Assembly: GCA_943788635.1 (NCBI GenBank)
Contig: CALSRA010000028.1
Location: 38,520 to 102,519, forward strand
Direction: 5' to 3'
Source of the DNA: an uncultured Alphaproteobacteria bacterium
GTDB lineage: Bacteria; Pseudomonadota; Alphaproteobacteria; UBA8366; GCA-2717185
Length of the DNA: 64,000 bases
Shown: in pieces, positions 149-51,089 of the stretch
Layout: each line of letters opens with the position of its first letter
How positions within the stretch are numbered: the first letter of the stretch is position 1
The notes under the pieces: model-generated
The model's input: only the letters and a program-made list of their open reading frames with translations
The model's database searches: none
What the model was told of the DNA's origin: nothing
Program-made: the position numbers and the translations under genes

Positions 149-622
149 TTATCTGTTGCTTTGCAAAAAATCGCGGCCGACAAGCGATAGATTATTCCGT
201 TCGCTCAGGAACTTGGCGTTGGCTTCGCGCATAGCCTTGAGTATCTCAACGCCGACACTACCGCCGTCACCCCGAACTTCGTCACGCAAAACAATGCGCA
301 ACGTTTCGATATGGTTGCGGATGAGTATCAGGCAATCGTTGGATCGGTCCAATGTATCTTTTGTCAATTCGAAAAGAGATTTCGCGACGGCCGAGACGAG
401 CGGATATCCGAAAACGCCACCCTGGCCACGTAATTCATGGCTGATACGGTTGATTTCGGCAAAATCGGGCCTGCGCTTGCTGGGATCCTTGGCCCGTGCC
501 GATCTCATGTGGCGTTTGAGCTGCTCGATATATTCGATCGTCCATTTGACGAAGTCATCATTCCATTCATCCAGCTCTTTCTGGATTTTGGTGATGGTGG
601 CAATGTTGGCCTGAAAGTTCAC
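149..622 (-). CDS. Hpt (histidine phosphotransfer) domain protein; N-terminus uncertain because an IS21 end lies 14 bp upstream
   Basis: This is the tracked ORF 149..664. Residues SHELRGQGGVFGYP fit the Hpt phospho-His motif. The first 9 tracked codons (MVYFYSGVD) are IS21 terminal-repeat sequence, so native coding cannot begin upstream of 636. GTG at 622-620 is a possible native start; otherwise the gene is 5'-truncated. Confidence 0.5.
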   Translation of the reverse strand: MNFQANIATITKIQKELDEWNDDFVKWTIEYIEQLKRHMRSARAKDPSKRRPDFAEINRISHELRGQGGVFGYPLVSAVAKSLFELTKDTLDRSNDCLILIRNHIETLRIVLRDEVRGDGGSVGVEILKAMREANAKFLSERNNLSLVGRDFLQSNR

Positions 623-1264
623 GCCGACTTTTCGTCTGTCAACGCCGGAGTAAAAATACACCATTGGCCGGAGTAAAAGTACACCACTTTGTATGATGTA
701 ATACTCGGTGTTGCGGGTTGTCCCGTTAGTCCATAGGAGGGACCCGTGCTGCTTTGCGTAGCGCTTTAGCGTTACGCGGAGCGAAGCAGCGCGGGAGGTG
801 CCTGTGGGCCCACCGGGTCAACCATGTTCTCGTTGGTCAGGTTTTTTGGGGGGTCTGCCGTTTTTGGCTCTGGTTCAGGCGGTAACTGTCGCCGTTCATC
901 TCGAGGATATGAACGTGGTGGGTTAGGCGGTCGAGCAAAGCCCCTGTCAGGCGTTCGGATCCGAACACCTCGGTCCATTCATCGAAGGGGAGATTGCTGG
1001 TCAGCAGGGTTGAGCCACGCTCGTAACGCTGAGAGAATACCTCGAATAAAAGCTCGGCCCCTGTTTTGCTGAGTGGCACGAAGCCCAGCTCATCGATAAT
1101 CAGCAGCTTGTATTTTGCCAATTGTTTTTGGAACCGCAGCAGGCGTTTCTCATCCCTGGCCTCCATCAACTCGTGGACCAGGGCGGCCGCCGTGGTAAAT
1201 CCAACACTGAGGCCTTTCTGGCAAGCCGCCAGGCCGAGACCGAGGGCGATATGGGTTTTACCGG

Positions 1265-1273
1265 TGCCTGAGT
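1265..1273. repeat. 9-bp target-site duplication TGCCTGAGT (left) of the IS256-family element
   Basis: The identical 9-mer recurs at 2661..2669. The uninterrupted copy B has this sequence only once (27647..27655, reverse complement ACTCAGGCA). Confidence 0.9.
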
Positions 1274-2660
1274 GAGCTAACGGCGAATTTTGGTGACGGG
1301 GAATTAGGCGGCGTATCTTGGATGTTGTTCAGGCATCCATAAATTCCAGGAAAGGAAAGATACGCCATGACGGATTCTATAGTTACACCGCTAGTTCAAC
1401 CAGGGGCGTTTAGCGATCTCCTGACGGACGTTCTGCGCAACGGGGCGCAGCGTTTGCTGGCGCATGCTGTTGAGGCGGAGGTTTCAAGTTTTATTGAGGC
1501 GCATGCGGACGAACGCCTGGACGACGGCCGGGCACGGATCGTGCGTCACGGTCATTTGCCGGAGCGCGGTATTCAGACCGGCATCGGGGCGGTGCGTGTT
1601 CGCCAACCGCGGGTGCGAGACCGTGCGGTGGATGGCTTGGCAAAGATCCATTTCTCGCCCAGCATTTTGCCCAAACACGCCCGGCGCACGAAGAGTTTGG
1701 ACGCGGTCTTGCCGGTGCTCTATTTGAAGGGAATTTCCGCCGGAAACTTCCAAGACGCGCTGTCCGCCTTGCTTGGTCCAGATGCGCCGAACCTGTCATC
1801 GGACACGGTCCTGCGCTTATGCAAAAGCTGGAAAGAAGAGCTGCAACATTGGCGCGGCCGGACTTTATCGGCCCGGCGCTATGTTTATATCTGGGCCGAT
1901 GGGATCTATTTCCAGGCGCGCATGGAAGATCAAAGCCAGTGTATGCTGGTCATTATCGGGGCCACACCGGAGGGCAAGAAGGAACTGGTGGGCTTTGTCT
2001 CCGGCTATCGGGAAAGCGCCCAGAGCTGGGCGGAGCTTCTGATTGATCTGAAAGCGCGTGGTCTCGCCGATACACCGCTGCTGGCGATTGGCGACGACGC
2101 TCTGGGTTTCTGGTCGGCGCTTGGAAAAGTGTTTCCGACGACCCACCAGCAGCGTTGCTGGGTTCACAAAACGGCCAATATTCTGAACGATATGCCGAAA
2201 GCCATGCAGGCCAAGGTCAAGGCCGACCTGCACAATATCTGGAGGGCCGAGAGCCGTCTGGCGGCGGAAAATGCGTTGTCGGTGTTCTGTGAAAAATACC
2301 AGGCGAAATACCCGAAGGCGGCGGAACGGTTGACCAGGGACGAAGACGAACTGCTCGCCTTTTATGATTTCCCGGCGGAACACTGGACCCACATCCGAAC
2401 CACAAACCCTATTGAAAGCACCTTCGCGACAGTGCGTCATCGAACCAAACGCTCCAAAGGCTGCCTGTCCATGGCGACCATGGAGCTAATGGTCTTCAAG
2501 GTTATCAAGGAGGCGGAGAAAACCTGGCTGCGATTACGAGGCAAAAACCAGTTGCCGAAACTCATCACCGGCGTCAAATTCAATGATGGCGTCGAACAGC
2601 AAAATCAGCACAATCAAAACGCCGCCTGAGCTTGCCATCACCAAAAATAACGGTTAGCTC
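1274..2660 (+). mobile_element. IS256-family insertion sequence (1387 bp) nested inside IS21 copy A
   Basis: The imperfect terminal inverted repeats are GAGCTAACGGCGAATTTTGGTGA (left) and GAGCTAACCGTTATTTTTGGTGA (right, reverse complement). It has one 420-aa mutator-type transposase gene and is flanked by a 9-bp duplication. Confidence 0.9.
1367..2629 (+). CDS. IS256-family (mutator-type) transposase
   Basis: This is an intact 420-aa ORF. The block ...LAIGDDALGFWSALGKVFPTTHQQRCWVHKTANILNDMPK... and the C-terminal ...TTNPIESTFATVRHRTKRSKG... are typical of this family. Confidence 0.88.
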   Translation: MTDSIVTPLVQPGAFSDLLTDVLRNGAQRLLAHAVEAEVSSFIEAHADERLDDGRARIVRHGHLPERGIQTGIGAVRVRQPRVRDRAVDGLAKIHFSPSILPKHARRTKSLDAVLPVLYLKGISAGNFQDALSALLGPDAPNLSSDTVLRLCKSWKEELQHWRGRTLSARRYVYIWADGIYFQARMEDQSQCMLVIIGATPEGKKELVGFVSGYRESAQSWAELLIDLKARGLADTPLLAIGDDALGFWSALGKVFPTTHQQRCWVHKTANILNDMPKAMQAKVKADLHNIWRAESRLAAENALSVFCEKYQAKYPKAAERLTRDEDELLAFYDFPAEHWTHIRTTNPIESTFATVRHRTKRSKGCLSMATMELMVFKVIKEAEKTWLRLRGKNQLPKLITGVKFNDGVEQQNQHNQNAA

Positions 2661-2669
2661 TGCCTGAGT
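2661..2669. repeat. 9-bp target-site duplication TGCCTGAGT (right) of the IS256-family element
   Basis: It is a direct repeat of 1265..1273 and immediately abuts the right inverted repeat. Confidence 0.9.
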
Positions 2670-2993
2670 TACCGAGCGCGATAACGTTCTCACGTCGCTC
2701 GACATATTCACATCGGGCCAGTTCTAGAACCATCATCTTGTTCAGCGATGGGATGGCTTTGAAGTCGAAGCTGTCCAGACTTTTGACGGCGGGGAACTTG
2801 GCCAGTCTGATCCGCCGTTCGACCATGCGGCGTTCCCGGTCGATCAATTCCAGTTCGGTCAGGCGGACGAGATAGCGGACATGATCGACACCCTCGGCGG
2901 CGCATTGGCGGGCCAGCTTGTCGTATTCCCTGAGGAAGGTGGGGAGCCTGAGCGCTTTCAGGTGATGGGATAGCAAGAGCTGTGGCGTATCGG

Positions 2994-4547
2994 TCATAAT
3001 GCACCGCCCATTACTTCCTTATCAGAGCTATCGGTTCTCTTCGCCCCGTGCAGTAAGTTCATGTAACTGGCCGCCGATGTCGTCGCCACCTGAGCCCGTG
3101 GCAGATAAGGATAGATGTCCAGATTGAGCTTTGGCGGACGCCGCTCTATGCGGCACAGCAGCAGATGTTTAACGGCGTCAAAGCTAATCGCGCTTAAGCG
3201 CAGGGCATCTCTGATCGCGCCATGTAGGTCATTGAGGTCGAATATCTCAAGCAGCCTTAGGACCTGTACGTACTCCCGCTTCCCCGGTTTGCCCATCCGG
3301 GCTTCAAGGAGGCGACGCAGAGTTACGAATACATCTGGCAGATCCCAACCCACCAACGGCGCCGCCTGGTCCAGGGCACCGACCTTCTTCTCCAGCAAAG
3401 GCAGATAGTGGATCGGGTTGAAGATCAGATCCTCCCGATCATAGGAACGGGGATGACGAGCGATCTCCTCACTGGCGCAGCCGATGATGACCTCATGGAC
3501 ATAGCTACGGACCCAGACGTCCTGATGGCCAAAGGCGACGGGCACCGAATAATCATTGTTTCGATACCGTACCAGGGATAGGGAACTGACCCGCGTGGCC
3601 TGTCTATCACAGGCATCGAACAGGACGGGAGGCAAGTCTGCCAGCACATCCTGATCACGAACAAGCCGCGCACCGATACTCTCGCGCTCGCCACGCAAAA
3701 CATCACGTTGGCGCTTGCGGCATTGCTCTTCCAGGTGAGCATTGAAGGCATCCCAACTCTCGAACTGTGGAACCGGCACCATGAAGTTCCGGCGGGCAAA
3801 ACCGACGATGCCTTCCACGTTACCCTTGTCGTTCCCTTTGGCTGGGCGGCCATAACGATCTTCAAAAAGATAATGAGACTGGAGGCCGCTGAATGCCCGT
3901 GTCCGTTGTCGTGTGCCATCTGGCAATATCCGCGCCACCAGAACCTTGTCGTTATCATACAGGATCGATTTAGGGATGCCGCCAAAGAAGCTGAAGGCCC
4001 TGTTGTGGCCATCTAGCCATGCTTCCGTGGTCGCTGCGGGATAAGCACAAACGAAACAGGCGTCGCTATGAGGAAGGCTCATGACAAAATAATGGGCCCG
4101 GCACTGGATGCCGCCGATGACTGCATCCGCTTCACCAAAATCTGCCTGGGCATGGCCCGGAGAATGGCTCAACGGCACGTACATCTCCCGCTGACGTTGC
4201 CGGGCGGCAAAAACATAATCCTTCACGATGGTGATGCCACCGGCAAAGCCATATTCATCACGAAGCCGCTCAAAGATCCGCTTCGACGTATGACGCTGCT
4301 TCTTCAGACGTTTGGTATCGTCCTCAAGGATCTGGTCGATAATACCGACAAACGGATCAAGCTTGGGCCGGTTCGGCGCCTTCTTGCGGCGATAGCCAGG
4401 TGGGGTCGAGAACGCCAACATCTTATCAACCGTGCGACGGTCAATGCCGAACAACCTTGCCGCTTCGCGGCGGCTCATACCTTGAATTTTTACCGCATAA
4501 CGCACGCGACCATACAATTCCACTTGCTTCATCCCCGCCCTCTGCAA
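2994..4547 (-). CDS. istA: IS21-family transposase IstA, copy A
   Basis: The 517-aa ORF has the same amino-acid sequence as 25769..27322. It has an N-terminal HTH and a DDE core, and its end overlaps the istB start by 4 bp. Confidence 0.92.
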   Translation of the reverse strand: MQRAGMKQVELYGRVRYAVKIQGMSRREAARLFGIDRRTVDKMLAFSTPPGYRRKKAPNRPKLDPFVGIIDQILEDDTKRLKKQRHTSKRIFERLRDEYGFAGGITIVKDYVFAARQRQREMYVPLSHSPGHAQADFGEADAVIGGIQCRAHYFVMSLPHSDACFVCAYPAATTEAWLDGHNRAFSFFGGIPKSILYDNDKVLVARILPDGTRQRTRAFSGLQSHYLFEDRYGRPAKGNDKGNVEGIVGFARRNFMVPVPQFESWDAFNAHLEEQCRKRQRDVLRGERESIGARLVRDQDVLADLPPVLFDACDRQATRVSSLSLVRYRNNDYSVPVAFGHQDVWVRSYVHEVIIGCASEEIARHPRSYDREDLIFNPIHYLPLLEKKVGALDQAAPLVGWDLPDVFVTLRRLLEARMGKPGKREYVQVLRLLEIFDLNDLHGAIRDALRLSAISFDAVKHLLLCRIERRPPKLNLDIYPYLPRAQVATTSAASYMNLLHGAKRTDSSDKEVMGGAL

Positions 4548-4641
4548 AATGCAGAAAGCTTACCACTGGCGGATTTTTACTCCGGCCAACAACCAGACAA
4601 TCTGGCCGCTTCAGTGGTGGATTATTGCTCCGGCGTTCTCA

Positions 4642-5063
4642 ATCGCCTCGCCAAAATCCGCTTGGGCATGGCCGGGGGCATGGGCAAGCGGAACAAACAT
4701 CTCCCGGCTGCGCCGGCCATGTTCACGGACATAATTCTTGACCGTCGTGTAGCCGCCCTCGAAGCCGTGCTCGTCCCGTAGCCGCTCAAAAACACGCTTG
4801 GCGGTATGTCGTTGCTTGCGGTTCCGGCTGAGGTCTTCCAGCAGCCATTGGTCGATGAAGCCGGTAAAGCCATCAAGTTTGGGCCGCTTGATCTCAGCCG
4901 TTCGTTGATATCCGGGCGGGACCGAAAAGCTCATCATCTTCTTTACGCTCGCGCGCGAAATCCCGAAATGGCCTGCTGCCGACCGTTCGCTCATGCCACC
5001 TCGACGCGCAAGGCGAACCTTCAAATACAAATCCACGACTAAAATCTCCCGCCCTCCCTGCAA
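4642..5063 (-). pseudogene. istA: istA of IS-C, only the first ~140 codons
   Basis: MQGGREILVVDLYLKVRLARRGGMSERSAAGHFG...HAQADFGEA matches residues 1-140 of the 505-aa IstA at 32368..33885. After that the frame reads into IS21 copy A. Confidence 0.88.
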
Positions 5064-5153
5064 CCAGAAAGGGCCAAAGTGGCAACATTTTACGCTGCCC
5101 GCAGCGAGATTATCACGCCACTTCCGTGGCCAACTTTTGCACTGCCGTTCTCA
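4642..5153 (-). mobile_element. 512-bp left-end stump of a second IS21-family element (IS-C), cut by insertion of IS21 copy A
   Basis: It matches the first 512 bp of the full element at 32278..34818, including the terminus TGAGAACGGCAGTGCAAAAGTTGGCCAC (reverse complement, ending at 5153). It ends exactly at the outer base of IS21 copy A. Confidence 0.88.
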
Positions 5154-6585
5154 TAGCGGATCGCCACGTGCAACAATTGTTGCATTCGTATCAAGGCTGT
5201 TCATCAGATCTGCCAGCGGCCGCTGGCATTCAAATACGATTGTGTCAGCGTATCCCGACAGCATTGGCACATAGCGGCTAAACTGCAGGGTGTCCCCGAA
5301 ACCCTGTTCCGCATGCACCAGTAATTTGCCGTTCTCAAGCGGTGCGCCGTCCCATGGAGCGCTATTAAACTGTCGTTGTGTTACGTCGCTGCATTTCAGT
5401 CGTGATTCGTAATTGCACCAGCCATTCTTGAAATCTGCGGAAAGCAACTGGGCGATGCCAAGGCCTTTTCGCAGTTCCGCGTTTTCAGGCGCTAATCCCA
5501 AAGCGCGTTCATACGCTATGATCGCCTCATCCGGCCGGTTCATATTAAGCTGGGCGAGGGCAAGACTGCCAAGAATCCGGTAATCATCCGGCGCGGATGC
5601 CAGCGCTGCACGGTACTGCTCGATAGCTTCGTCCAGCCGTTCTTCTTCGCGCAGAGAATTGGCGAGATTAAGATGCCCGTGAGCCCAGTTCGGACGAAGC
5701 CGAAGAACGTTGCGGAATTGCATTTCCGCCTGGTCATGCTGGCCTGACCGGGTGAGAATTACGCCGAGGTTATTAATAATTTCCGGATCGTCCGGCCGCA
5801 GGCGCATCGCGATATCGAGTGCGTCTTTTGCGGCTGAAATTTCGCCGGCGTCCAGCAGCGCAAGTCCAAGGTTATTGTGTGCCGATGCCAGTTCCGGCGT
5901 ATGTGAGACCGCCAGGCGGGCATATGCGATTGCCTCATCAATGCGACCGCATCCGCGCATCGCCGCAGACAGCGCGCTTTCGCATTCCGGCCAGTATTTG
6001 CCGGGTTCGGTGCCAAGAAGAGCGGACTTGAACTGCTCCACGGCGGCAACGGGTTCGCCCGCGTGATGGAACGCTAATCCAAGCTGGTATTGTATCGCGG
6101 GGTCTTCGGCGGATTGATTCAGCGCGCCCTGCAAGGTTTTCACTGCGTCCAGAGGTTGCCCGGCGCCCAGTTGCAGGTTCGCGAGATGACGTAGGGTTTC
6201 AATTTCGTCGGGCTTCAGGACGACATACTGACTCCATGCAAGAATGGCCTGATCGGTGCGGCCGGCGTTTTCCAGACATTCAGCAAAGCTGCGGCTGAAT
6301 GTAGGGTTCATCTGGTCCAGGCTTACCGCGCGCATGAAGTAACTTATTGCCGCGGTAAATTCCTGTGTCCGTGTCGCAATATGGCCCAGGATATGGAACG
6401 CTTCGGCATTTTCCGGAAAGCTGGCGATAATACCCTGGCATATCACCGCTGCAGTTGGGTATTGACGCTCGTTTTAGTGCCACACGGCCTTTTGCAGCAA
6501 TTCGCCGGGAGTGCCGACAAAGGGTTCGCCGTCCTTTCGGTCGGAGTCCGTGGTCACCGCGTAAGGCCCTTTCAGTAAGAAACAT
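5154..6585 (-). pseudogene. TPR-repeat protein with a C-terminal GT9/heptosyltransferase-like domain (FlmG-like architecture); hit three times
   Basis: Multiple TPR repeats are followed by ...LLVHAEQGFGDTLQFSRYVPML. The 3' end is cut by the IS-C terminus, and the stop codon TGA is the first 3 nt of the IS. There is an in-frame TAA at 6476-6474 (...LLQKAVWH*NERQYPTAAVICQGII...). A probable +1 frameshift lies in TTT at 6570-6572, between the ATG at 6585 and the main frame. Confidence 0.6.
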
Positions 6586-6671
6586 CCGAATCCCGAATGG
6601 TGTCGATTCGAATATCTGGCTGGCCCCTTGTCAATTGAATTAGTCCGGAAGAGAAGGCTGTAGGATACTAG

Positions 6672-7628
6672 TTACCGAAGAAAGTTAAGCAGCAACAGAC
6701 TTTGAATTCTGGCGATCGTGGCGAAGGATGCCTCCAGGGATACCTGTTCAATATTAAGGCGGGTAATCGCTTCAGCGGGATCCACTTGCTCGATGTCGAT
6801 AATTGTCTGTTCAGCAAATGCTGCAAAATTTTCATGCTTGATATTGACGTCCCGCAGCAGGACCCGGTTGAGCTCCACTTCCGAGAATAGCTCATTCAAT
6901 GTCTTTTCGCCCACCGGTGGTGCCTCGATGGCAACGGTCAATAAAGCAATGGCGTCGTCGACGGCAGTGACTTCCGCGGCACTGGGCGGGGATGTAAACG
7001 TGATTTCCGATATAGCGTCGAAGGCGCGAATAACACGCTCAATCGACGGTTCATTCGCCTTGACGCCGTAGTTGATAACGAAGTCTTCATCGATCCTGGA
7101 TTGTTGCGTGACGTTGTCGCCGCCATACCAGTCGGTATCCGCTACTGCCGGGAAGGGGGGCACCGTCGGTGGTGTATATGTGCCGTTATTGAGGTCGACA
7201 GGTTTGTTCTGGATATTACCGCCGGCAAACAGGAAACGGCTTTCGTCTTTCACGTTGAGCAGGTCCGAGATCTGATCAAGCAGTCCCTGTGCCAGTGCCG
7301 GCAGGCCGATGACATTGGCGGTTTCACCGTTTTTGGCATTCAGCAAAGTCGTGCGGAATTCATGCGAAATTCGCTCGACTCGTTCGAGCGAGAAGCTCAT
7401 CAATTCGAGGCGGCGTTCGGTGGTTTCGATATTGGAACGGAATTGTTCCACCCTGGAAAATTCGTTCCGTACGCTGACAAGGCGGCCGGCTTCCTGGCCG
7501 AGGCCAGCAAAATCCTGCGCCTTCAAACCGGTTCCCACCTGGGTCTGTGCTTCGAACAGGCGTTCCTGCGTATTCAGGGCGGTAAATACCGAGAAGCGGC
7601 TTTGGGCGATTGTGGCTATTCTGGACAA
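6672..7628 (-). CDS. flgL: flagellar hook-associated protein 3 (FlgL)
   Basis: The protein is 318 aa with flagellin-like N- and C-terminal helices, and it lies directly downstream of flgK. Confidence 0.8.
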   Translation of the reverse strand: MSRIATIAQSRFSVFTALNTQERLFEAQTQVGTGLKAQDFAGLGQEAGRLVSVRNEFSRVEQFRSNIETTERRLELMSFSLERVERISHEFRTTLLNAKNGETANVIGLPALAQGLLDQISDLLNVKDESRFLFAGGNIQNKPVDLNNGTYTPPTVPPFPAVADTDWYGGDNVTQQSRIDEDFVINYGVKANEPSIERVIRAFDAISEITFTSPPSAAEVTAVDDAIALLTVAIEAPPVGEKTLNELFSEVELNRVLLRDVNIKHENFAAFAEQTIIDIEQVDPAEAITRLNIEQVSLEASFATIARIQSLLLLNFLR

Positions 7629-7638
7629 TGCGCTGCTC

Positions 7639-9765
7639 CTATCGGACCGAATTAATCAAGGCCTCAAGCATTTCCGAAGCGACTGTGAGCACCCGTGCCG
7701 ATGCGCTGAATGCATTTTCAAGGATAACCAGTTCTGCAAGTTCTTCGTCGACGTTGACGCCGGCATCATTCGTCTGCCGGAAGACCAGTGTTTCCAGGAA
7801 GACCTCATTGAATTGCTTGTCAGTACGGGCATCCGAGGTGAGTGAGGATTGGAGGTCGACGATCTGGGCGGCAAAACTGATAATCGTCGTTGATCCGGAA
7901 TTGATGCCGCCGGTTCCCGCGAAATTCAGATTGGTGCCGAAAATGCCAGCGATGGAATTGGCAATTGCGCCGTCACCAATCGACGTACCGACGTCGCCGA
8001 CAGCGGCGGTCAGGTCGAGCTGCCCGCGAGACAGCAGGTTGGTATTGTCGGTGATGGCACTATTCACCGCGATGACATTGGCGATACCCGTGTCGTTTGG
8101 AATTGTGTTCAGTGTCGTCAGCAGCGTTCCGGAATCCGAAATGATAAAATTGTCGCTTTGCGCATCTGTAATCGTGAGGCGGCGACCACCGGAATCGTCC
8201 GTTACCGACGCGGAAATTCCCTGCGCGGTCAATGCGGCGGTTCCGTTGATCGAAGCCGCAATAGCTTCCAGTGAATCACCGGTGGCGTAAGTCACCCCGG
8301 CGCCGGCCGTTCCGTCAAACCGGAAGGTTAGTGTGCCTGCTAATCCGACAGCAGTGGTGCTGCTGGCCAGCCGACCGGTTGAATATGAATCGTAGTCACT
8401 GGCGTTGGTACCGGTCGTCAGAAAGTCGTTTAATCCGAAGAAGTGGGAAAAGCCGCGGGTTAAGCCGCCGGCGACGGTTACGGCGCTGGTGTTTTCGCCA
8501 ATGGATATGCCCTGGTTTGCTGCCTGCGCCTGGATCTCCAGTTTACCGTCCGCATTCACAGATGCGGGTGTCCCGGTAAGCCCGGCATTTATCGCTGTAA
8601 CCACATCGGCGACTGTTGCGGTGGCGCCCAGTCCGGCCAGGTTTATGTCGGTGAATTCGACAACTGCCCCCGTCGTCTGATCCAGTACTGCAATGCGTAC
8701 TGACCCGGTCCCGGCAAAGGCATCTGTCGCGGCAAGACTATGTGTTCCTGTCAAGGTTGCCGGCGGTGGGAATGCCGTTCCCTGATTGTGCAAGGCATTG
8801 ATTTGTGACGTCAGAACCGAAGAAAGGCGATCCATCTCGCTTTGCAGGTTTGGCAGAATGGCATCCCGCACGTCGATCAGGCCTGCAATCTCGCCTTCTG
8901 AGATCTGGGTAGTGATGTCGTTTGCCCCGGTCACGCGATCCGCCGTACCGACGTAAATACCGTCGATGCTTCCGGGGTAATTCGCGTCTCCCGGCTGCAC
9001 AAACGCGGTGCTGGCGTCGGTCTGGGAAGCAGAGTTATGCGACAGACTGAACAATGATCCTTCGCTCAACAACGTCCGGCCACCACCGGTGAATATACTC
9101 ACCTTGCCACTGCCCGCTTCGAACGTCCGAATATCGATAAGTTGTGAAATCTGGGCGATGGCGACGTCCCGCTGGTCGCGCAGTTCGCCGTCAGGTTCGT
9201 TCGATGCGACAGCCTGGGCTATTTTGGAATTGAGGTTTTCCACAAAGGTAAGCTGCTGGTTGATTGTATCGATGCCGGTCGAAATCGACTGGTCAGCTTC
9301 AGCCCGAAGTGACTGTATGGCCGTGGTAAGTTGGCTGATCTGCACCATTGTCTTGCGGGCGTCATTGACCGCAGTGAATCGCGCCGCATCGGATTCCGGC
9401 GACAATGCCAGCGTTTCGAAATTATTGTTCAGCGTCGTCAATCCGGCAGCAAAGGTATCATTGTTGTCCGGGGTGCCCAGGAAGCCCTGTATCTGTGACA
9501 GGAACTGTTCACGCGCGTTGATAGCCCCCAATTTGCCACTCTGGTCTCGAACCTGTTCGACCAGGAACTGGTTAACGTTGCGCGTGACATCTATGACATC
9601 GACGCCAGCGCCCAGATCAACCAACCGCCGAGGCGAAAGTTCGACCTGTTTCCGGGTGAATCCGTCGGTGTTTACGTTGGCGATATTGTTGGCATTAACC
9701 TGCAGGGCCAGTTGGCTGGCCTGAATGCCGGAAAGTGCGGTTTGAAGGGCGAGGGATATCGACAT
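7639..9765 (-). CDS. flgK: flagellar hook-associated protein 1 (FlgK)
   Basis: The protein is 708 aa. The N-terminus MSISLALQTALSGIQASQLALQVNANNIANVNTDGFTRK is the flagellar basal-body rod/HAP motif. Confidence 0.9.
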   Translation of the reverse strand: MSISLALQTALSGIQASQLALQVNANNIANVNTDGFTRKQVELSPRRLVDLGAGVDVIDVTRNVNQFLVEQVRDQSGKLGAINAREQFLSQIQGFLGTPDNNDTFAAGLTTLNNNFETLALSPESDAARFTAVNDARKTMVQISQLTTAIQSLRAEADQSISTGIDTINQQLTFVENLNSKIAQAVASNEPDGELRDQRDVAIAQISQLIDIRTFEAGSGKVSIFTGGGRTLLSEGSLFSLSHNSASQTDASTAFVQPGDANYPGSIDGIYVGTADRVTGANDITTQISEGEIAGLIDVRDAILPNLQSEMDRLSSVLTSQINALHNQGTAFPPPATLTGTHSLAATDAFAGTGSVRIAVLDQTTGAVVEFTDINLAGLGATATVADVVTAINAGLTGTPASVNADGKLEIQAQAANQGISIGENTSAVTVAGGLTRGFSHFFGLNDFLTTGTNASDYDSYSTGRLASSTTAVGLAGTLTFRFDGTAGAGVTYATGDSLEAIAASINGTAALTAQGISASVTDDSGGRRLTITDAQSDNFIISDSGTLLTTLNTIPNDTGIANVIAVNSAITDNTNLLSRGQLDLTAAVGDVGTSIGDGAIANSIAGIFGTNLNFAGTGGINSGSTTIISFAAQIVDLQSSLTSDARTDKQFNEVFLETLVFRQTNDAGVNVDEELAELVILENAFSASARVLTVASEMLEALINSVR

Positions 9766-9796
9766 TGATAGGGTTACCTATCCGTTGCTCTGGTGT

Positions 9797-10240
9797 CTAA
9801 AGGCTTCGGTTAAGAGATGCCGGGCGCGGTGGCGGTGCGCCTCTGGTGTATCCCCCGGGCGATGCGCCGGTATTTGTATAACCGGTCGCAGGGCTGGCGC
9901 TCTTCGTCACAGCATTCGCAATGACCTGTACGAGCTTTGCATTCATGTCGAGCGCGGCTCTGACGGCGAAGGCGTTTTCTTTTGCCTTCGTCTGAAAACG
10001 CGTCATCACCTGCTCCAGATCGGAACGGACATCCGGCTCAATGCCGGCCAGTGCGCCGGGTTCTTCCGCTGCCTGGCGTATATGCGTTTCGTAGATACCG
10101 GTCAGCGAAGCCTTTTGCTCCTGCAAGGGGGCGATGTCCGAAGCCTTGCCATTTTTCAAAAGCTCGATTTCCTCGGACATGATGTGAATCAGCGATTCTG
10201 ATACGCCAATAAGTTCATGGGCGCGCGCATTCGGGTTCAT
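9797..10240 (-). CDS. FlgN-like flagellar export chaperone (putative)
   Basis: The protein is 147 aa, helical, and has an ...EEIELLKNGKASDIAPLQEQKASL... pattern. It sits between flgJ and flgK. The assignment rests on context plus weak motif similarity. Confidence 0.45.
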   Translation of the reverse strand: MNPNARAHELIGVSESLIHIMSEEIELLKNGKASDIAPLQEQKASLTGIYETHIRQAAEEPGALAGIEPDVRSDLEQVMTRFQTKAKENAFAVRAALDMNAKLVQVIANAVTKSASPATGYTNTGASPGGYTRGAPPPRPASLNRSL

Positions 10241-10587
10241 TTCGTTTGCTCCGGTTGTTGCGTTGCGGAATCAGCTTTTTCCTGCATCTCCAGAATTGCC
10301 TTTTGAACGGAATCGGCAATTCCGATACCGCCTGCTTGCGTGATGATTTTTCCGTATTCCTGCAGCATCATCGAGCGGAAGACTGATTCGCCCTGGCCAC
10401 CGCCGAACATGCCGTCGGTCTTGATGCCGGTGTACATCTGCTCGATATATTGACCGATGAAGAATGCCTCGAAGGATTCCGCTGTTTCGCGCGCCTTGCT
10501 GGGGTCGCTTGTCCCTTTCAGCGTCGGCGGTTGCGCGTAGCGAGCGGCTTGCTGGGTCAGATCGACTGTTCCGGAAATGTCCATCAA
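10237..10587 (-). CDS. flgJ: rod-binding protein (FlgJ N-terminal domain type, no muramidase domain)
   Basis: The protein is 116 aa. ...AESFEAFFIGQYIEQMYTG...GESVFRSMMLQEYGKIITQAGGIGIADSV is typical of the alphaproteobacterial rod-binding FlgJ/CheL family. Confidence 0.75.
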   Translation of the reverse strand: MMDISGTVDLTQQAARYAQPPTLKGTSDPSKARETAESFEAFFIGQYIEQMYTGIKTDGMFGGGQGESVFRSMMLQEYGKIITQAGGIGIADSVQKAILEMQEKADSATQQPEQTK

Positions 10588-11741
10588 AGCACCTGTATGT
10601 CAGCGTTGAGTGCGCCCGCGGCCTTAATCGCCTGCAGGATCGTGATCATGTCGTGGGGCCCGATTCCCAGAGAATTGAGCCCGTTGACCAGTTCCTGCAG
10701 GCTGACGCCGGTATTGAGCACCGTCAGTTTCTTGTCGCCACCTTCATCAATCGTAATTTCCGTACGCGGCACGACTTCCGTGGTTCCGGTGTTGGCAAAG
10801 GGAAGGGGCTGGGAGACCTGCGGGGTTTCCGTTACCCGGATGGTCAGTGCGCCTTGCGCGATTGCAACAGGGTTGATGCGAACATTCTCACCCATAACGA
10901 TGGTGCCGGATTGTTCGTCGATAACGACCTTGGCAATCTGATCGGGTTCGACCCGCAGTTGTTCGATGTCGGTGATCAGTTCAATTATTTCGCCCTTGTA
11001 GTTTTCAGGCGTTTTCATCACGACGGTTGCCGGGTCGGTTGCGCGGGCGGCAGGGAGGCCGACGAACGCATTGATAGCGCGTGATATTCTGCGGGCGGTC
11101 GTGAAGTCCGGATTACGCAGCGAGAGCTTGATTTGCTTCCGGTTCGCCAGCTGGAAGGGAATTTCGCGCTCAATGATTGCGCCATTGGCGATGCGCCCGC
11201 TGGTTGGAACGCCCTTGATGACGGTCTCCGCCGCGCCGCCTGCAGCGAAGCCGCCAACCGCTATTGTTCCTTGGGCGACGGCATAAATTTCGCCGTCGGC
11301 GCCGACCAGTGGTGTCACCAGCAGGGTCCCGCCGAGCAGGTTATCGGCATCGCCGAGCGCCGATACGGTTACGTCAATATTCGTACCCTGATTCGAAAAC
11401 GGGGGGAGTGACGCTGTGACCATGACAGCGGCAACATTGGCCGTCGTCAGGGCGTCATCACGTGCGTTAACGCCGAGCCTTTCGAGCATGCCGATCAGGC
11501 TCTCGCGGGTGAAAATGGCGCTGCTCAGGCTATCGCCGGTGCCATTCAATCCAACGACGAGACCATAGCCGACGAGTTGGTTGGAACGGACGCCTTCGAA
11601 GAAAACGATGTCCTTAATTCGCGATTGGCCCATGGCCGAAGCGTGTACGAACAGAACCAGGAGCACGAGGACAGCCACGAAAAGGCTCAGCTGGCCCTGT
11701 ATGGTGACCCCTGCGCGCAGTATGTCTCGTCTGTTTGTCAT
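10584..11741 (-). CDS. flgI: flagellar P-ring protein FlgI
   Basis: I chose the start at the ATG 11741-11739 (MTNRRDILRAG... with a signal peptide ...HASAMG). RIKDIVFFEGVRSNQLVGYGLVVGLNGTGD is the FlgI signature. The tracked ORF extends further upstream but without homology. Confidence 0.9.
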   Translation of the reverse strand: MTNRRDILRAGVTIQGQLSLFVAVLVLLVLFVHASAMGQSRIKDIVFFEGVRSNQLVGYGLVVGLNGTGDSLSSAIFTRESLIGMLERLGVNARDDALTTANVAAVMVTASLPPFSNQGTNIDVTVSALGDADNLLGGTLLVTPLVGADGEIYAVAQGTIAVGGFAAGGAAETVIKGVPTSGRIANGAIIEREIPFQLANRKQIKLSLRNPDFTTARRISRAINAFVGLPAARATDPATVVMKTPENYKGEIIELITDIEQLRVEPDQIAKVVIDEQSGTIVMGENVRINPVAIAQGALTIRVTETPQVSQPLPFANTGTTEVVPRTEITIDEGGDKKLTVLNTGVSLQELVNGLNSLGIGPHDMITILQAIKAAGALNADIQVL

Positions 11742-11785
11742 TCCGGCCTTCAACTTCGGATTAAGAGAGATTTCGCTATAGCTGT

Positions 11786-11801
11786 AGCGAAAGCCGTGCC
11801 A
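11786..11801 (-). promoter_or_regulatory. putative sigma-54 (-24/-12) promoter of the flgI operon
   Basis: The minus strand reads TGGCACGGCTTTCGCT, with the GG and GC elements at canonical 12-nt spacing, about 45 nt upstream of the flgI ATG. Confidence 0.45.
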
Positions 11802-12006
11802 ACGGGCGTCGAAAATAAGGTGTTGAAATGATGGGTTTAATTGTTGGGTCTGGAATGTTGCCAATTGACACGGTGCCGTTATCGGCAAGCGGTGCCGGTA
11901 AGCCCGGCAAAGATTTCCGTGAGTGGGGAGATGGGGAACCTGTGCAGTCGTGGTTGTAATTTGAAATAAGGTTCCGTTGCCTGCTGAAAAACAGTAAGCT
12001 GTGTGT

Positions 12007-12432
12007 ATGAAAATTGATTCCTCAGGCAGGGTTCGCCCTTCGGCGGGCGGCGCGAAAGGCAAAGCAGGAAAGGTTGAAAAGGGGAGCGGGTTTACCGATC
12101 ACCTTTCACCGCAAACGGATTCCGTTGCCTCGGTTGCCTCTTCGTCACCGACGCAAAGCGTCGACGCTTTGCTGGCAATACAGGGCGTCCCGGATGCAAC
12201 GACGGGGCGGGCGAATGCGCGGGCCCGGCAGTGGGGCAATGACGCGCTTGATCAGCTTGAGCAGATACAGACCGATTTGCTTTTGGGTGGGATTCCCAAG
12301 GGGCGCCTCATGAACCTGGCACGGATGGTTCAGGAACGCCGGGAGCATGCTGCTGATCCGGCTCTGACCAGCCTGCTTGACGACATTGAATTGCGGGTCC
12401 GTGTCGAAATTGCAAAATACGAGCCGCGCTAG
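12007..12432 (+). CDS. fliX: flagellar assembly regulator FliX
   Basis: The N-terminus MKIDSSGRVRPSAGGAKGKAG..., ...SVDALLAIQGV... and the C-terminal ...DPALTSLLDDIELRVRVEIAKYE follow the Caulobacter FliX pattern. The gene is divergent from flgI, as in Caulobacter. Confidence 0.75.
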   Translation: MKIDSSGRVRPSAGGAKGKAGKVEKGSGFTDHLSPQTDSVASVASSSPTQSVDALLAIQGVPDATTGRANARARQWGNDALDQLEQIQTDLLLGGIPKGRLMNLARMVQERREHAADPALTSLLDDIELRVRVEIAKYEPR

Positions 12433-12551
12433 GGTCTTCGGGCCGTCTAAAACTGCCAAAAATGTACTTTCGTTTCCGGGGCTTGCAGGACCGTTGCGCG
12501 CGAATATATAGTGCGCGCCGGTTTTGTGAACATACCCGTGGAGCGAAACAC

Positions 12552-12968
12552 ATGTACCCAACGCTTCCGCCAGACTATCGGCCATCGGAAGACGAAGAGT
12601 TTATGAATCCCCTGCAACAGGAGTATTTTCGCCAAAAATTGATGCAGTGGCGTCGACAACTTTTGAAGGATACCGGGGATACCCGTACCAATTTGAAAGA
12701 AGAAAACCTGGCGGAACCTGATCTTGCGGATCGGGCGACGTTGGAAACCGACCGGTCTCTCGAACTTCGAACGCGGGATCGGCAGCGCAAATTGATCAAC
12801 AAGATTGATTCCGCGTTGCGACGAATAGAGGACGGTTCGTACGGATATTGCGAAGAAACGGAGAATCCGATTTCCCTGCGACGACTGGAGGCGCGACCGA
12901 TCGCGACGCTGACCATTGAAGCGCAGGAAATGCATGAACGGATGGAACGGACCCACCGTGACGATTGA
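12552..12968 (+). CDS. dksA: DksA-family RNA polymerase-binding factor, Zn-finger-degenerate type
   Basis: The start is at MYPTLPPDY. ...DRATLETDRSLELRTRDRQRKLINKIDSALRRIEDGSYGYCEETENPISLRRLEARPIATLTIEAQ retains only one of the four canonical Cys residues. Confidence 0.8.
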   Translation: MYPTLPPDYRPSEDEEFMNPLQQEYFRQKLMQWRRQLLKDTGDTRTNLKEENLAEPDLADRATLETDRSLELRTRDRQRKLINKIDSALRRIEDGSYGYCEETENPISLRRLEARPIATLTIEAQEMHERMERTHRDD

Positions 12969-13082
12969 GTAACGCGATAAACCGTTCGCGGTATATTCGT
13001 TGCTAAGCTGACGCCTCGCGTGTCATGGCGCGGAAGTTTCTGCGTATCGGTTCTTGCCCTAAACGGTAGCGCCGGGCAGGTG

Positions 13083-13844
13083 CTAGAAGGGGAAGATGAT
13101 ATCTATCAGCTGATTGCCGTACCGGGGTTGCTGGAAGTCCGATAATTGGCCGCGTCCGCCGTAAGATACGCGTAATTCCGCAATCTGTTCATGCGGGATT
13201 GTATTCGAGTTGGTTATATCCTGCGGTCGAATGACACCGGCGAGCTGGATCTCGCGGACTTCGAAATTTACCCGAATTTCCTGACGGCCATGCAGAACCA
13301 GGTTTCCATTCGGCAGCACCTGGGTAATGACCGCAGCGACCTGCAAGGTAATTTGTTCATCACGCGCGATTGTGCCATTGCCGTTGTTTGAAGTGGCGCT
13401 GTTGACGTTGAGCAGATTGGCGGGGTCGACAGCTTGAGGAAGCAGCCGGTTCAATGCGGCCTGATATCCGAGCAGGGCACTGGCGTCTGCATCTTCGGTA
13501 CTGGCGCGGGTTCGTTCGGTTTCATTCTCCAGATCGGCCTGATCATCCACTTCAACGACGACAGTGACGATATCGCCAACCTGTGCTGCGCGGAGATCCT
13601 TGAAAAACGCACGTGATCCAGTCCGCCACAGAGAATTCGGATTATGCCGCGCGAGTATTGGCGCCGGCATCGGCATGCTGACTGGTTTGTATGTTTGCGT
13701 CTGTGTCGGGTTTTGAATATCCGACATTGTCGGTGCTTCGCCGACACCAGATAGACGACTCAATGCGTTGCATCCTGACAGGGCGACGCCAATAACGGCG
13801 AGGCAAAAAAACCGTGTGACATTCGAAGTATGGATCGCGGTCAT
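13083..13844 (-). CDS. flgH: flagellar L-ring lipoprotein FlgH
   Basis: The protein is 253 aa with the lipobox VALSGC, and the C-terminal ...RVSYGGRGQLSDFQQPRYGNQLIDIIFPF is the FlgH signature. Confidence 0.9.
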   Translation of the reverse strand: MTAIHTSNVTRFFCLAVIGVALSGCNALSRLSGVGEAPTMSDIQNPTQTQTYKPVSMPMPAPILARHNPNSLWRTGSRAFFKDLRAAQVGDIVTVVVEVDDQADLENETERTRASTEDADASALLGYQAALNRLLPQAVDPANLLNVNSATSNNGNGTIARDEQITLQVAAVITQVLPNGNLVLHGRQEIRVNFEVREIQLAGVIRPQDITNSNTIPHEQIAELRVSYGGRGQLSDFQQPRYGNQLIDIIFPF

Positions 13845-13852
13845 TTTGAATC

Positions 13853-14812
13853 CTATTGCAGGGCAATGTTGTTGAGGGTGGATACGGCGACGCGTTTGTC
13901 ACCGATAACGACGGCACTGATAATCTTGCCGCTGTTGCTGTTCTGAACCCGGACGACGTCGCCCTTGGCGCCATTCTGGAGGGCCTTGCCCAATGCTGTG
14001 AGCTGCAGGAGCGGGGTCGTCAAAGCGATTGTGACCTGCTTCCCACGGGTTACAAGAATAGGCGGCTGTACTTCATCATCGCGAATGGCGCGGTCAGATG
14101 CGATCTGGCGCCGCGGACTTTGACCGATGAGCGTTTCGAGGTCGGTGATTGTCCGAGAGTCAACGGTATCAAGGCGGACGGTTTTCCATTCGATGTCACG
14201 GTTACCGATGATGTCATTGCGATTCAATCGACGAACGAGTGTCGGTATCTGGGTCATGGGAAATGCGGAGCCTGTGATTACGGCACGGACGGCACCAGGC
14301 CTGTCGTCAGGCGCAAAGACGCGGGCTGTAAATCGCCGGCTGCGCGTATCGTATGAAATCGACTGGGTTCTGATTTCTCCCGGCATCTTGAACGGCAGAA
14401 ACAGCCGCAATGCGCGACTGTCCAGTTCCATTTCAATTTCATCCAGATCGGCATATTTTTCTTTCAACGCCTTTGTCAGCGCTTCATGAATCTGGTCTGT
14501 TTCGATGATCCGGCTACGCCGTTCGACAACGGACCGGTCCAGCCGGCTGGTAGGGCGCCAGGAGACTTTGTACGCACGGGCAACCCGGTATAACCAGTCC
14601 GCTTCCAAAACCAGTGTGCGGCCCGCGGGCGGCGCGTGGGCAATGACTCGTTCCGCCATTTTACCGGCCCCGTCGAAGACATCCCCGAGTTTCACGGTAT
14701 CGCCTTCGATGAGGACGTTGTTGCGCAGATAGGCGCGTGGGCCTGCCTGCACGCTGGCAGCCAGAACGATGACGGCTGCGGCGACTGAAATGAAAAGGCG
14801 TCGTGCATTCAT
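13853..14812 (-). CDS. flgA: flagellar P-ring formation chaperone FlgA
   Basis: The protein is 319 aa with a signal peptide and a C-terminal SAF-type segment ...GKALQNGAKGDVVRVQNSNSGKIISAVVIG. It lies between flgG and flgH. Confidence 0.75.
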   Translation of the reverse strand: MNARRLFISVAAAVIVLAASVQAGPRAYLRNNVLIEGDTVKLGDVFDGAGKMAERVIAHAPPAGRTLVLEADWLYRVARAYKVSWRPTSRLDRSVVERRSRIIETDQIHEALTKALKEKYADLDEIEMELDSRALRLFLPFKMPGEIRTQSISYDTRSRRFTARVFAPDDRPGAVRAVITGSAFPMTQIPTLVRRLNRNDIIGNRDIEWKTVRLDTVDSRTITDLETLIGQSPRRQIASDRAIRDDEVQPPILVTRGKQVTIALTTPLLQLTALGKALQNGAKGDVVRVQNSNSGKIISAVVIGDKRVAVSTLNNIALQ

Positions 14813-14826
14813 GACAACAATCCCGG

Positions 14827-15612
14827 TTAACGCATGTTTCCGAGTACAGACATCATCTGGTCTGATGTTTCGATAACCTTGGAATTCATCTCATAGGCCC
14901 GCTGTGCGGTGATGAGATTGGATATTTCCTCGACAACATTGACATTGGATGTTTCCAGGAAACCCTGCTGTATCGTGCCTATACCGGTCGATCCCGGTGT
15001 GCCTGTCGTCGGCGTCCCGGATGCGGGAGTCTCGAGGAACAGGTTGTCACCAACCGCCAGCAATCCCGCTTCGTTGGAGAAAATGGCAAGGTCCAGTTGG
15101 CCCACATTGGCCGGCGCGACCTGTCCGTCCTGTTTTACCAGCACCTGACCATTGGGATTGATCGACACATCGACGGCGTCCGTTGGGATTGTAATGGCGG
15201 GTTCGACGATAAACCCATCTGCTGTGACAAGTTCACCGTTCGCGCTCAACTGAAAGGAGCCGGCGCGCGAGTAGGCGATTTCGCCATTCGGTAACTGAAC
15301 CTGAAAGTAGCCATTGCCATTGATGGCAAGGTCGAAGGTGTTTTCGGTAAGGGTCAGGTTGCCCTGTTCGGTTATCCGGTAAACGGCAGCTGTTTTGACG
15401 CCCAGGCCAACTTGAACACCTGCGGGTACAATCGTGCCTGCATCGGATGATTCCGATCCGACTCGTCGCAAATTCTGATACAGCAGGTCCTGGAACTCTG
15501 CCCGGCGCCGGGTATAGGCGGTCGTATTCATATTGGCGATATTGTGGGAAATGACCTCAACGTTCAGCTGTTGCGCCAGCATTCCGGTCGCGCCGATACT
15601 AAGTGATCGCAT
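14827..15612 (-). CDS. flgG: flagellar distal rod protein FlgG
   Basis: The protein is 261 aa. It has MRSLSIGATGMLAQQLNVEVISHNIANMNTTAY at the N-terminus and the C-terminal ...LETSNVNVVEEISNLITAQRAYEMNSKVI. Confidence 0.92.
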   Translation of the reverse strand: MRSLSIGATGMLAQQLNVEVISHNIANMNTTAYTRRRAEFQDLLYQNLRRVGSESSDAGTIVPAGVQVGLGVKTAAVYRITEQGNLTLTENTFDLAINGNGYFQVQLPNGEIAYSRAGSFQLSANGELVTADGFIVEPAITIPTDAVDVSINPNGQVLVKQDGQVAPANVGQLDLAIFSNEAGLLAVGDNLFLETPASGTPTTGTPGSTGIGTIQQGFLETSNVNVVEEISNLITAQRAYEMNSKVIETSDQMMSVLGNMR

Positions 15613-15623
15613 GAATTTTACCC

Positions 15624-16352
15624 TTAACTTTGCCGCAGACGCGTAAGCTTTCCGATAGCCCGCATCGCTTGGTCGTGGTCGGATTTAATAAGGTTTGCCG
15701 TCGACTGGTAGGATCGATGTATTTCGATCATGCGTGTCATTTCGACGATTGCCTGCACGTTCGATTGTTCGAGCATCCCCTGCATCATTTTGCTGTCGTT
15801 CGCTGCCTGGGGCTGCTGGTCGCCGGCGGCATACTGGCCATAGGCTTCGCGTTTGAGCGCTGAGTCGTCTTCGAACTCGAATAATCCAATTTGCCCGATT
15901 GTGCCGTTGTCACCACTGACGGTGCCGTCTGCAGAGATTGTCAACTGGCCGGAACCGACCGGTACGACAATAGGACCGCCCTGGGCCGTTAATACGGCTT
16001 CGCCCTGACCATTGACGATCTGTCCCTGTCCATCGAGCTGGAATTGTCCGTGACGGGTGTATTTCGCGCCGTCCTGCGTTTCGATAGAAAAATACGCGGG
16101 CCCGGAAATTGCCAGATCCAGCGCATTGCCTGTCGCCGTGATAGGGCCTTCCGACAGATCACGGGACATCCCGTAATCCTGCACGAACGAAAGCGACTCT
16201 TTCTGATTCGGCTCATCGACATATTCGCGAAAAATCATTTTTTCCGCTTTGTATGCGGGCGTATTCATGTTGGCGATATTGTGCGCAACAACACTCATTT
16301 CGCGTCGTAAGGCGGCTTGCCGGGATAGCGCGATGTATCCTGCGTTTTCCAT
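15624..16352 (-). CDS. flgF: flagellar proximal rod protein FlgF
   Basis: I chose the start at the ATG 16352-16350 (MENAGYIALSRQAALRREMSVVAHNIANMNTPAYK). The C-terminal ...LEQSNVQAIVEMTRMIEIHRSYQS fits the family. Confidence 0.88.
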   Translation of the reverse strand: MENAGYIALSRQAALRREMSVVAHNIANMNTPAYKAEKMIFREYVDEPNQKESLSFVQDYGMSRDLSEGPITATGNALDLAISGPAYFSIETQDGAKYTRHGQFQLDGQGQIVNGQGEAVLTAQGGPIVVPVGSGQLTISADGTVSGDNGTIGQIGLFEFEDDSALKREAYGQYAAGDQQPQAANDSKMMQGMLEQSNVQAIVEMTRMIEIHRSYQSTANLIKSDHDQAMRAIGKLTRLRQS

Positions 16353-16395
16353 TCTGGTCCCGTTCCTGAGGCTTTCAATACTCGAGAAAGCAGGA

Positions 16396-16412
16396 ATGCA
16401 TGGGCCATGCCA
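16396..16412 (-). promoter_or_regulatory. putative sigma-54 (-24/-12) promoter of the flgFGAH operon
   Basis: The minus strand reads TGGCATGGCCCATGCAT with correct GG/GC spacing, about 45 nt upstream of the flgF ATG. It sits in an AT-rich region divergent from fliL. Confidence 0.45.
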
Positions 16413-16658
16413 TATGGAAATATGAATAATTACAATTGAGTAGATGTCAGTATGGAAAACTGCTGCGCATTGAAATGCCCATTCCGGGAAGGCTTTGCCG
16501 GGCACTTCTTGCCGCAATCAAGGGCACGTCGCAGCGGACATTTCCATTCGTTGTTTTTTAAGATTCAAATATTATGATTTTTTTTGTAATATATGTTTAG
16601 CCGCTATAATAAAGATCATGTATTTGCACAATAACCGATTACAGAATTTCTGGATATC

Positions 16659-51088: not shown

Positions 51089-51089
51089 T

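Follow-up and report, generated by a model that had tools for sequence, protein, structure and literature searches.

The Locus Downstream of flgL

The window examined here is a stretch of 64,000 nucleotides from an uncultured Alphaproteobacteria bacterium (GenBank assembly GCA_943788635.1, contig CALSRA010000028.1, positions 38,520 to 102,519). On its minus strand the order is flgK, flgL and then a gene combining tetratricopeptide repeats (TPR) with a glycosyltransferase (GT) domain, an arrangement that an earlier note on this DNA had already described correctly. The locus after flgL is a pseudogene that has been inactivated twice, once by a stop codon and once by truncation at an insertion sequence (IS). 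It is probably what is left of a flagellin O-glycosyltransferase resembling FlmG of Caulobacter crescentus. The intact protein is predicted to be cytoplasmic; its N-terminal ~370 residues form a TPR array and its C-terminal ~296 residues a GT-B domain that has a GT9-like fold.

The lesions are defined by comparison with an intact orthologue, P0001, a protein of 667 amino acids (99% identical) recovered through a protein search and encoded on a 98.6-kb JGI metagenome contig. Its locus, L001 (gene at 10001..12004), shows 99.37% identity to window positions 15432..5154 in an alignment of 10,279 bp with zero gaps. In a codon-by-codon comparison, the TAA at 6476..6474 occupies codon 28 of the gene, where TAC (Tyr) stands in the relative of 99.4% identity. 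The frame upstream of the longest surviving open reading frame (ORF) reads ...TTDSDRKDGEPFVGTPGELLQKAVWH*NERQ at this TAA (ending LLQKAVWH*NERQ, the asterisk being the stop).

The second lesion lies at the junction with the element termed IS-C. The match to the relative ends exactly at 5154, and the left end of the IS21-family element (TGAGAACGGCAGTGC...) begins at 5153. The starting bases of the element, TGA (5153..5151), close the truncated frame, so that 468 of the 667 codons remain and the last 199 are lost. This amounts to 199 of the 296 residues of the catalytic domain; of the 56 columns invariant in the family, 29 go with them, those of VDTAxAHLxG and WYP among them. With a stop at codon 28 and residues 469-667 missing, the window copy does not hold an intact, functional catalytic domain. 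No near-identical orphan fragment of the missing 199-amino acid C-terminal part is present among the matches listed, from which P0001 itself is absent too.

The earlier note had considered the gene to be destroyed three ways. Two of these stand, namely the in-frame TAA and the loss of most of the GT domain at 5153/5154 with a stop codon derived from the IS. The third, a +1 frameshift at 6570-6572, had assumed that translation begins at the ATG at 6585, which lies upstream of the actual start codon and in a different frame. P0001 and its homologues begin at the GTG and the frameshift is therefore not real; three further homologues (MAKDSERGD..., MATEPEHGDGEPVVGTPGELL...) start in register with the GTG at 6557..6555, and the alignment to the relative is free of gaps. 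The gene thus occupies 5154..6557 rather than 5154..6585.

Both lesions recur in a Logan assembly contig of run ERR9769286, which has the same TAA and IS junction, is 99.99% identical to the window over 11,142 bp and stops 30 nt inside the IS. Between the remnant and the intact copy, all three nucleotide differences are non-synonymous, whereas the ten neighbouring genes differ from the relative by 9 amino acids from 41 nucleotide differences. This may be read as a point in support of relaxed constraint on the remnant. The ten genes, which are flagellar-cluster genes free of stops across the aligned block, are the flgG C-terminus, flgA, flgH, dksA, fliX, flgI, flgJ, flgN, flgK and flgL.

The longest surviving ORF could at most encode a TPR-only protein with a GT stub. 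Pfam assigns only TPR families to this 431-amino acid product, and its last ~90 residues, which read ...LLVHAEQGFGDTLQFSRYVPML...IVARGDPL*, are without a match. The ORF translation and the Pfam matches agree with the succession of many TPR repeats followed by ...LLVHAEQGFGDTLQFSRYVPML reported in the earlier note. The coordinates of the features are collected in Table 1.

Table 1. Features at the remnant and the associated insertion sequences (window coordinates).
Feature	Coordinates	Strand	Basis or remark
flgK	7639..9765	minus	Intact; TIGR02492 at 266 bits, above cut-off; stop-free versus L001
flgL	6672..7628	minus	Intact, immediately upstream of the remnant; NCBIfam FlgL/flagellin-type matches; stop-free versus L001
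TPR + GT9-fold glycosyltransferase remnant	5154..6557	minus	Codons 1-468 of the original 667; ungapped L001 alignment
GTG start codon of the remnant	6555..6557	minus	Equals the called start of P0001; homologue N-termini align
TPR array, ~residues 20-371	5445..6500	minus	Pfam TPR_16, TPR_1, TPR_2 and others, E down to 4e-35
Retained GT-B part, first 97 of 296 residues (beta1-alpha1-beta2-alpha2-beta3), with invariant EQGFGDT	5154..5444	minus	Alignment columns and model
Longest surviving ORF, 431 amino acids, GTG start after the TAA	5151..6446	minus	ORF list; Logan contig L082 has the same ORF
IS-C left-end fragment, IS21 family, 512 bp	4642..5153	minus	100% identical to 32278..32789 (self-BLAST)
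IS-C full-length reference copy	32278..34818	plus	Terminal inverted repeats TGAGAACGGCAG.../...CTGCCGTTGACA; IstA and IstB domains
IS-B, IS21 family, inserted in IS-C	636..4641	minus	Self-BLAST, flank sequences, Pfam IstB_IS21
IS256-family element splitting IS-B	1274..2660		Pfam Transposase_mut; 9-bp duplication

Insertion Sequences and Rearrangement

IS-C belongs to the IS21 family, with an IstB_IS21 match of 257 bits, rve and Mu-transposase C-terminal domains in IstA, and terminal inverted repeats. The elements at 636..5153 are nested, the IS256-family element being within IS-B and IS-B within the 512-bp fragment of IS-C. The outer flank of IS-B is not IS-C but an unrelated ORF with an Hpt domain. 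The two flanks of IS-B therefore do not match, and this copy is recombinant, which implies a deletion or an inversion. The Hpt-domain ORF (149..664) has its first codons inside IS-B, and its true N-terminus may be cut off. No part of L001 11405..22004 is found anywhere in the window, and tblastn detects no flagellin, flaF or flbT gene there; the absence of flagellin had been noted before.

An order of events at the locus can be inferred from this arrangement. The Tyr28 codon changed from TAC to TAA as one of the two disabling events. The other was the insertion of IS-C behind codon 468, which took away part of the first lobe of the catalytic domain and all of its sugar-nucleotide-binding lobe, and IS-B would then have inserted into IS-C. 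Recombination at IS-B would have replaced the sequence beyond, with the loss of the 3′ third of the gene and of the flaF-flbT-flagellin block from the site.

The intact relative has a rearrangement of its own. Synteny ends at L001 1126 (window 15432), inside flgG, and L001 keeps only the last 113 amino acids of FlgG beside a thiamine pyrophosphate (TPP)-dependent enzyme (L001:1-1400). The window, unlike L001, keeps the full flgG and an flgF-like gene at 14827..16517.

The Gene in Intact Relatives

The gene order in L001 is flgI-flgJ-flgN-flgK-flgL-[gene]-flaF-flbT-flagellin-flagellin. The two flagellins are 274 and 275 amino acids long with 20-25% Ser+Thr. Caulobacter flagellins are similar in size. 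Past the flagellins there are genes for a PhyH-type oxygenase, a methyltransferase, a PseH-like GNAT protein ~5 kb from the gene (57.7 bits against a cut-off of 93.1), two poorly characterised genes and a TPR-GT41 gene.

In GTDB species genomes, a scan returned 80 loci. The three closest (L002, L003 and L004) are from alphaproteobacterial or Rhodospirillaceae metagenome-assembled genomes and have 38-39% identity. L002 and L004 both read flgI-flgJ-flgN-flgK-flgL-[gene]-flaF-flbT-flagellin, and the shorter L003 (7.1 kb) reads flgK-flgL-[gene]-flaF-flbT-flagellin. The gene is therefore linked to flaF, flbT and flagellin in L001 and in L002-L004, and it is this downstream block that is missing in the window. 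Intact orthologues do stand at flagellar loci, and neither of the two findings that the earlier note had named as counting against its claim is seen.

Flagellar neighbours occur in 13 of the 80 loci, which are L002-L004 and ten more. Family members adjoin flagellin, flaF or flbT in loci of Desulfatibacillum, Geobacteraceae and Geomonas. In Noviherbaspirillum, a family member is immediately beside a weak flagellin-like match (25% identity, E 3e-10), and in Bradyrhizobium one lies directly after flgL. The flagellin loci of the relatives (L002:11824-21819, L004:14251-21966 and L001:15416-21629) contain several TPR-GT41 genes, a second TPR-GT9-like gene, and DegT, WbqC and GNAT genes. In their gene content, these loci look like a multi-enzyme flagellin glycosylation island.

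Family and Fold of the Catalytic Domain

The only Pfam match for residues 372-667 of P0001 is GT9 (PF01075), which covers just 37 residues at 19.8 bits (E 5e-4) and does not reach the gathering threshold of 22 bits. A paralogue in L004 passes PF01075 at 27.9 bits, and many homologues carry precomputed PF01075 hits. JGI and NCBI annotate many family members as ADP-heptose:LPS heptosyltransferase or GT9, and NCBIfam gives weak heptosyltransferase I and RfaQ matches for the P0001 domain. A sequence search of PDB chains with the catalytic domain found no match, either as a single sequence or as a profile.

An AlphaFold2 model of the catalytic domain, built from a 16-sequence alignment, has a pLDDT of 89.8 and a pTM of 0.90 and shows a two-lobed, Rossmann-type GT-B fold. 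Foldseek against the PDB places Escherichia coli WaaF first (1psw, E 6e-8), followed by the Veillonella GT9 protein 3tov, WaaC (2gt1/2h1h) and TibC. These matches to GT9 structures have E values of 6e-8 to 1e-5, a TM score of ~0.55 and 9-14% identity. The modelled fold is rightly described as GT9-like, as the earlier note had proposed for the C-terminal domain, although P0001 falls outside strict Pfam membership.

Across phyla, the mean column identity of the catalytic domain is 59%. Conservation at this level suggests that the donor may be a widely available nucleotide sugar. Among the proteins P0241-P0390, some are 1,200-3,100 amino acids long and carry two to six tandem copies of the GT9-like domain.

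Relation to FlmG

FlmG of C. crescentus is a protein of 596 amino acids, with a TPR domain (1-313) that binds flagellins and a GT-B domain at 309-596. Two-hybrid assays detected binding of flagellins by the TPR domain on its own (PMC7591256). The donors of FlmG are CMP-pseudaminic acid (CMP-Pse) or CMP-legionaminic acid (CMP-Leg) (PMC7591256; bioRxiv 10.1101/2022.03.25.485807). The Brevundimonas enzyme uses legionaminic acid, and it is the GT-B domain that sets this preference (bioRxiv 10.1101/2022.03.25.485807). To judge by the titles cited in PMC7591256, the older literature places flmG (flbA) in a flaF-flbT-flbA-flaG unit.

From overlapping primers in the supplement of the FlmG paper, the peptide FQIPGVRWSGQDLR can be read, which lies where the TPR and GT domains of C. 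crescentus FlmG meet. The exact 20-nt primer sequence has no match in metagenomes. A degenerate DNA scan for the WSGQDLR part of the peptide returned 120 metagenome stretches, seven of which encode members of the gene's family; the peptide is in frame in six of these seven, and for one locus, L133, its position is estimated as matching W402 of P0001. Another hit of the scan, L164 (66% G+C), encodes FQIPGTRWSGQDLRG, which is identical to FQIPGVRWSGQDLR at 13 of 14 residues. Its gene is followed by one for a KdsB-like cytidylyltransferase and then by a PseH gene that passes the equivalog cut-off (162 against 93 bits). On this peptide and these neighbours, L164 is taken as an FlmG-type orthologue.

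The catalytic domains of P0001 and L164 align end to end, with 27% identity in BLASTP (E 7e-25, 308 columns) and a probability of 99.8% in a profile comparison by hhalign (E 1e-29). The FlmG class's N-terminal TPR domain is present by Pfam, and the homologous C-terminal GT-B domain is established through the proxy L164 rather than against the FlmG sequence itself. The comparison with FlmG made in the earlier note therefore holds at the level of homology. On these alignments, both domains of the gene are homologous to those of FlmG-type enzymes, although the branch to which it belongs is a separate one, more conserved and much larger.

Likenesses to FlmG extend beyond the succession of a TPR array and a C-terminal GT-B domain of ~290 residues. 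Both share a W-x-G-x-x-L motif at the junction of the domains, and in L001 the neighbours of the gene include flaF, flbT and flagellin genes, with the PseH-like acetyltransferase close by. The differences are also clear. The invariant motifs are EQGFGDT and VDTATAHLAG in this branch as opposed to EQGLGDE and GFSNATINLAG in the FlmG-type proxy, and the catalytic domain is only ~27% identical to that of the proxy. The host is a Rhodospirillaceae-like alphaproteobacterium, whereas FlmG has been described as confined to Caulobacterales (bioRxiv 10.1101/2023.12.03.569772). No synthase for pseudaminic or legionaminic acid is seen nearby, and the window copy is a pseudogene.

Comparison with Other Glycosyltransferases

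WaaC and WaaF (PDB 2gt1, 2h1h, 1psw, with 3tov) are the top structural matches. They share a G-D motif after the first strand, and the weak Pfam and NCBIfam matches run over the donor-binding helix. In contrast to these enzymes, the gene has a domain below the Pfam gathering score that is fused to TPR repeats, and its likely acceptor is a protein and not lipid A-Kdo. TibC and AAH (PDB 4rap, 4rb4) form the second group of structural hits. These protein O-glycosyltransferases work in the cytoplasm and have a GT9-like GT-B fold, but differ from the gene, to which they have 12-13% identity, in lacking a TPR domain, in forming iron-containing dodecamers and in transferring heptose onto autotransporter passenger domains.

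The Maf proteins (MAF_flag10) act in cytoplasmic flagellin O-glycosylation, the role proposed here, and are likewise encoded in flagellar clusters, some with TPR (bioRxiv 10.1101/2023.12.03.569772). However, their catalytic fold is GT-A, which is unrelated in sequence and structure to the GT-B domain of the gene. The TPR-GT41 (OGT-like) proteins of the relatives also join a TPR array to a GT-B transferase in the same neighbourhood, but belong to another catalytic family (PF13844, up to 310 bits) and have a longer catalytic region. Burkholderia FlmQ is another conceivable relative of the gene.

The Sugar Island and Other Features of the Window

A sugar-biosynthesis and glycosyltransferase island is located at 49716..63036. 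It encodes a GmhB-like phosphatase, a GT2, a GT1-like gene, a DegT aminotransferase, an epimerase/dehydratase, a nucleotidyltransferase and a GHMP kinase. Several of its genes are split: the B12-radical-SAM C-methyltransferase (53750..54400/54443..55642), E1 beta (56625..57230/57261..57899) and the GHMP kinase (60802..61443/61277..61771). These interruptions suggest that the island is decaying too. The earlier note had placed a second broken TPR-GT fusion at 61785..63036, but the ORF at 61912..63036 has only NodZ/FUT8-type (GT23 fucosyltransferase-like) matches and no TPR match, which rules this out.

Three other ORFs of the window may be mentioned. The trpC ORF (43799..44398) covers only positions 79-253 of the indole-3-glycerol phosphate synthase profile and may be truncated, as may a TPP-enzyme ORF (48219..49700) without its N-terminal domain. 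A 619-amino acid ORF (23835..25694) lies beside motB-like and AMIN-domain genes, just before IS-B, and has one weak TPR match but is otherwise unannotated.

Function and Alternative Readings

The reading of the window gene as an inactivated FlmG-like flagellin O-glycosyltransferase is the most likely one and probably correct. It starts from direct observations, namely the two lesions, the domain architecture, the fold, the synteny in relatives and the homology to an FlmG-type protein; from these, a flagellin substrate and a division of labour between the two domains can be inferred. In the intact enzyme, the predicted TPR array would bind flagellin in the cytoplasm, and the predicted GT domain would move a nucleotide-activated sugar onto Ser/Thr residues of flagellin before export. 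These roles are assigned because of the homology to FlmG and the conserved slot between flgL and flaF-flbT-flagellin.

A number of points weigh against this assignment. The domain family has 46,016 members at E<=1e-3 in a profile search of 1.84 billion cluster representatives, and 67 of the 80 GTDB loci are without flagellar neighbours, many of them being from Planctomycetota, cyanobacteria and Acidobacteriota; a flagellin substrate does not follow from belonging to the family alone. The link to C. crescentus FlmG passes through one metagenomic proxy, recognized from its gene neighbours and from a peptide of 14 residues derived from primers, and at 27% identity to this proxy the gene may belong to a paralogous subfamily with another substrate. 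No nonulosonic-acid synthase gene is seen within 10 kb of the orthologues. The actual transferases acting on flagellin could be the TPR-GT41 enzymes encoded in the flagellin loci of the relatives.

Several of these points are shared by an alternative in which the protein is a general TPR-glycosyltransferase that acts on a non-flagellin target (another protein or a glycan) or has a regulatory or scaffold role, with an accidental flagellar position and a nearby TPR-GT41 enzyme modifying flagellin. It would fit a huge family that includes giant multi-domain proteins, most members of which are not beside flagellar genes, and the presence of TPR-GT41 genes in the same loci. It is nevertheless unlikely, as orthologues of as little as 38% identity still occupy the position between flgL and flaF-flbT-flagellin, family members stand beside flagellin in other phyla as well and the domain is homologous to that of an FlmG-type protein. 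A further reading, that the locus is partly alive and that the 431-amino acid ORF from the GTG at 6446 makes a TPR-only flagellin-binding chaperone or regulator that carries out no glycosylation, seems highly improbable. The 431 open codons keep nearly the whole TPR array, and the two-hybrid results for the FlmG TPR domain (PMC7591256) give such a protein a precedent. Yet the restart would fall 111 nt downstream of where translation natively begins, the cognate flagellin genes are gone from the site, and every substitution relative to the intact copy is non-synonymous.

The identity of the sugar donor raises another alternative, in which the intact enzyme is a protein heptosyltransferase that modifies flagellin or another protein with a heptose-derived sugar, for which the island at 49.7-63 kb would be the source. 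The nearest solved folds are indeed ADP-heptose GT9 enzymes and the protein heptosyltransferase TibC, and the window holds GmhB-like, HddC-like and HddA-like genes. The identity to the GT9 structures is, however, 9-14%, and the three "heptose" NCBIfam matches of the island are below their cut-offs (123 against 178, 104 against 300 and 36 against 600 bits). The HddA-like kinase belongs to the split genes of the island. No GmhA isomerase is seen, and the island is ~45 kb away and unlinked to the gene in the 22-kb locus of the relative. FlmG-type enzymes use CMP-Pse or CMP-Leg on a homologous domain (PMC7591256), and the donor therefore cannot be read from the fold. A heptose-derived donor, as suggested in the earlier note, is unsupported, resting on the resemblance of fold and on the distant island, and this reading as a whole is quite unlikely. 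The sugar-related genes that do lie near the gene are the PseH-like GNAT gene, below its cut-off, and in relatives the DegT and WbqC genes; NeuB, PseI and LegI are not seen among the window ORFs scanned or within 10 kb of the orthologues.

Biological Significance

The window feature itself is ordinary decay in an IS-ridden genome, and the interest lies in the intact orthologues. A wider view, which is put forward only tentatively, is that these orthologues form a second, far more widespread FlmG-like branch, with TPR and a GT9 fold carrying EQGFGDT...DSPWYP, that glycosylates flagellin in Rhodospirillales-like alphaproteobacteria, Geobacterales, Desulfobacterales and some Burkholderiales. Given how strongly the catalytic domain is conserved across phyla, the sugar would probably be a common one and not a nonulosonic acid. 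If this were true, flagellin glycosylation, and perhaps the main flagellin locus too, would have disappeared recently from the strain through an IS21-mediated rearrangement.

The intact orthologues extend the FlmG-like architecture beyond Caulobacterales, contrary to the published description (bioRxiv 10.1101/2023.12.03.569772). The TPR and GT9-fold enzymes in the fixed slot between flgL and flaF-flbT-flagellin, and those in other phyla, are candidates for flagellin O-glycosylation outside Maf and Caulobacter FlmG. Flagellin modification would be one plausible function for some members of a family that has more than 46,000 cluster representatives and in which, as far as found, only the FlmG-type proteins have been studied. 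The natural knock-out and its 99.4%-identical intact relative provide a ready comparison of what the modification does.

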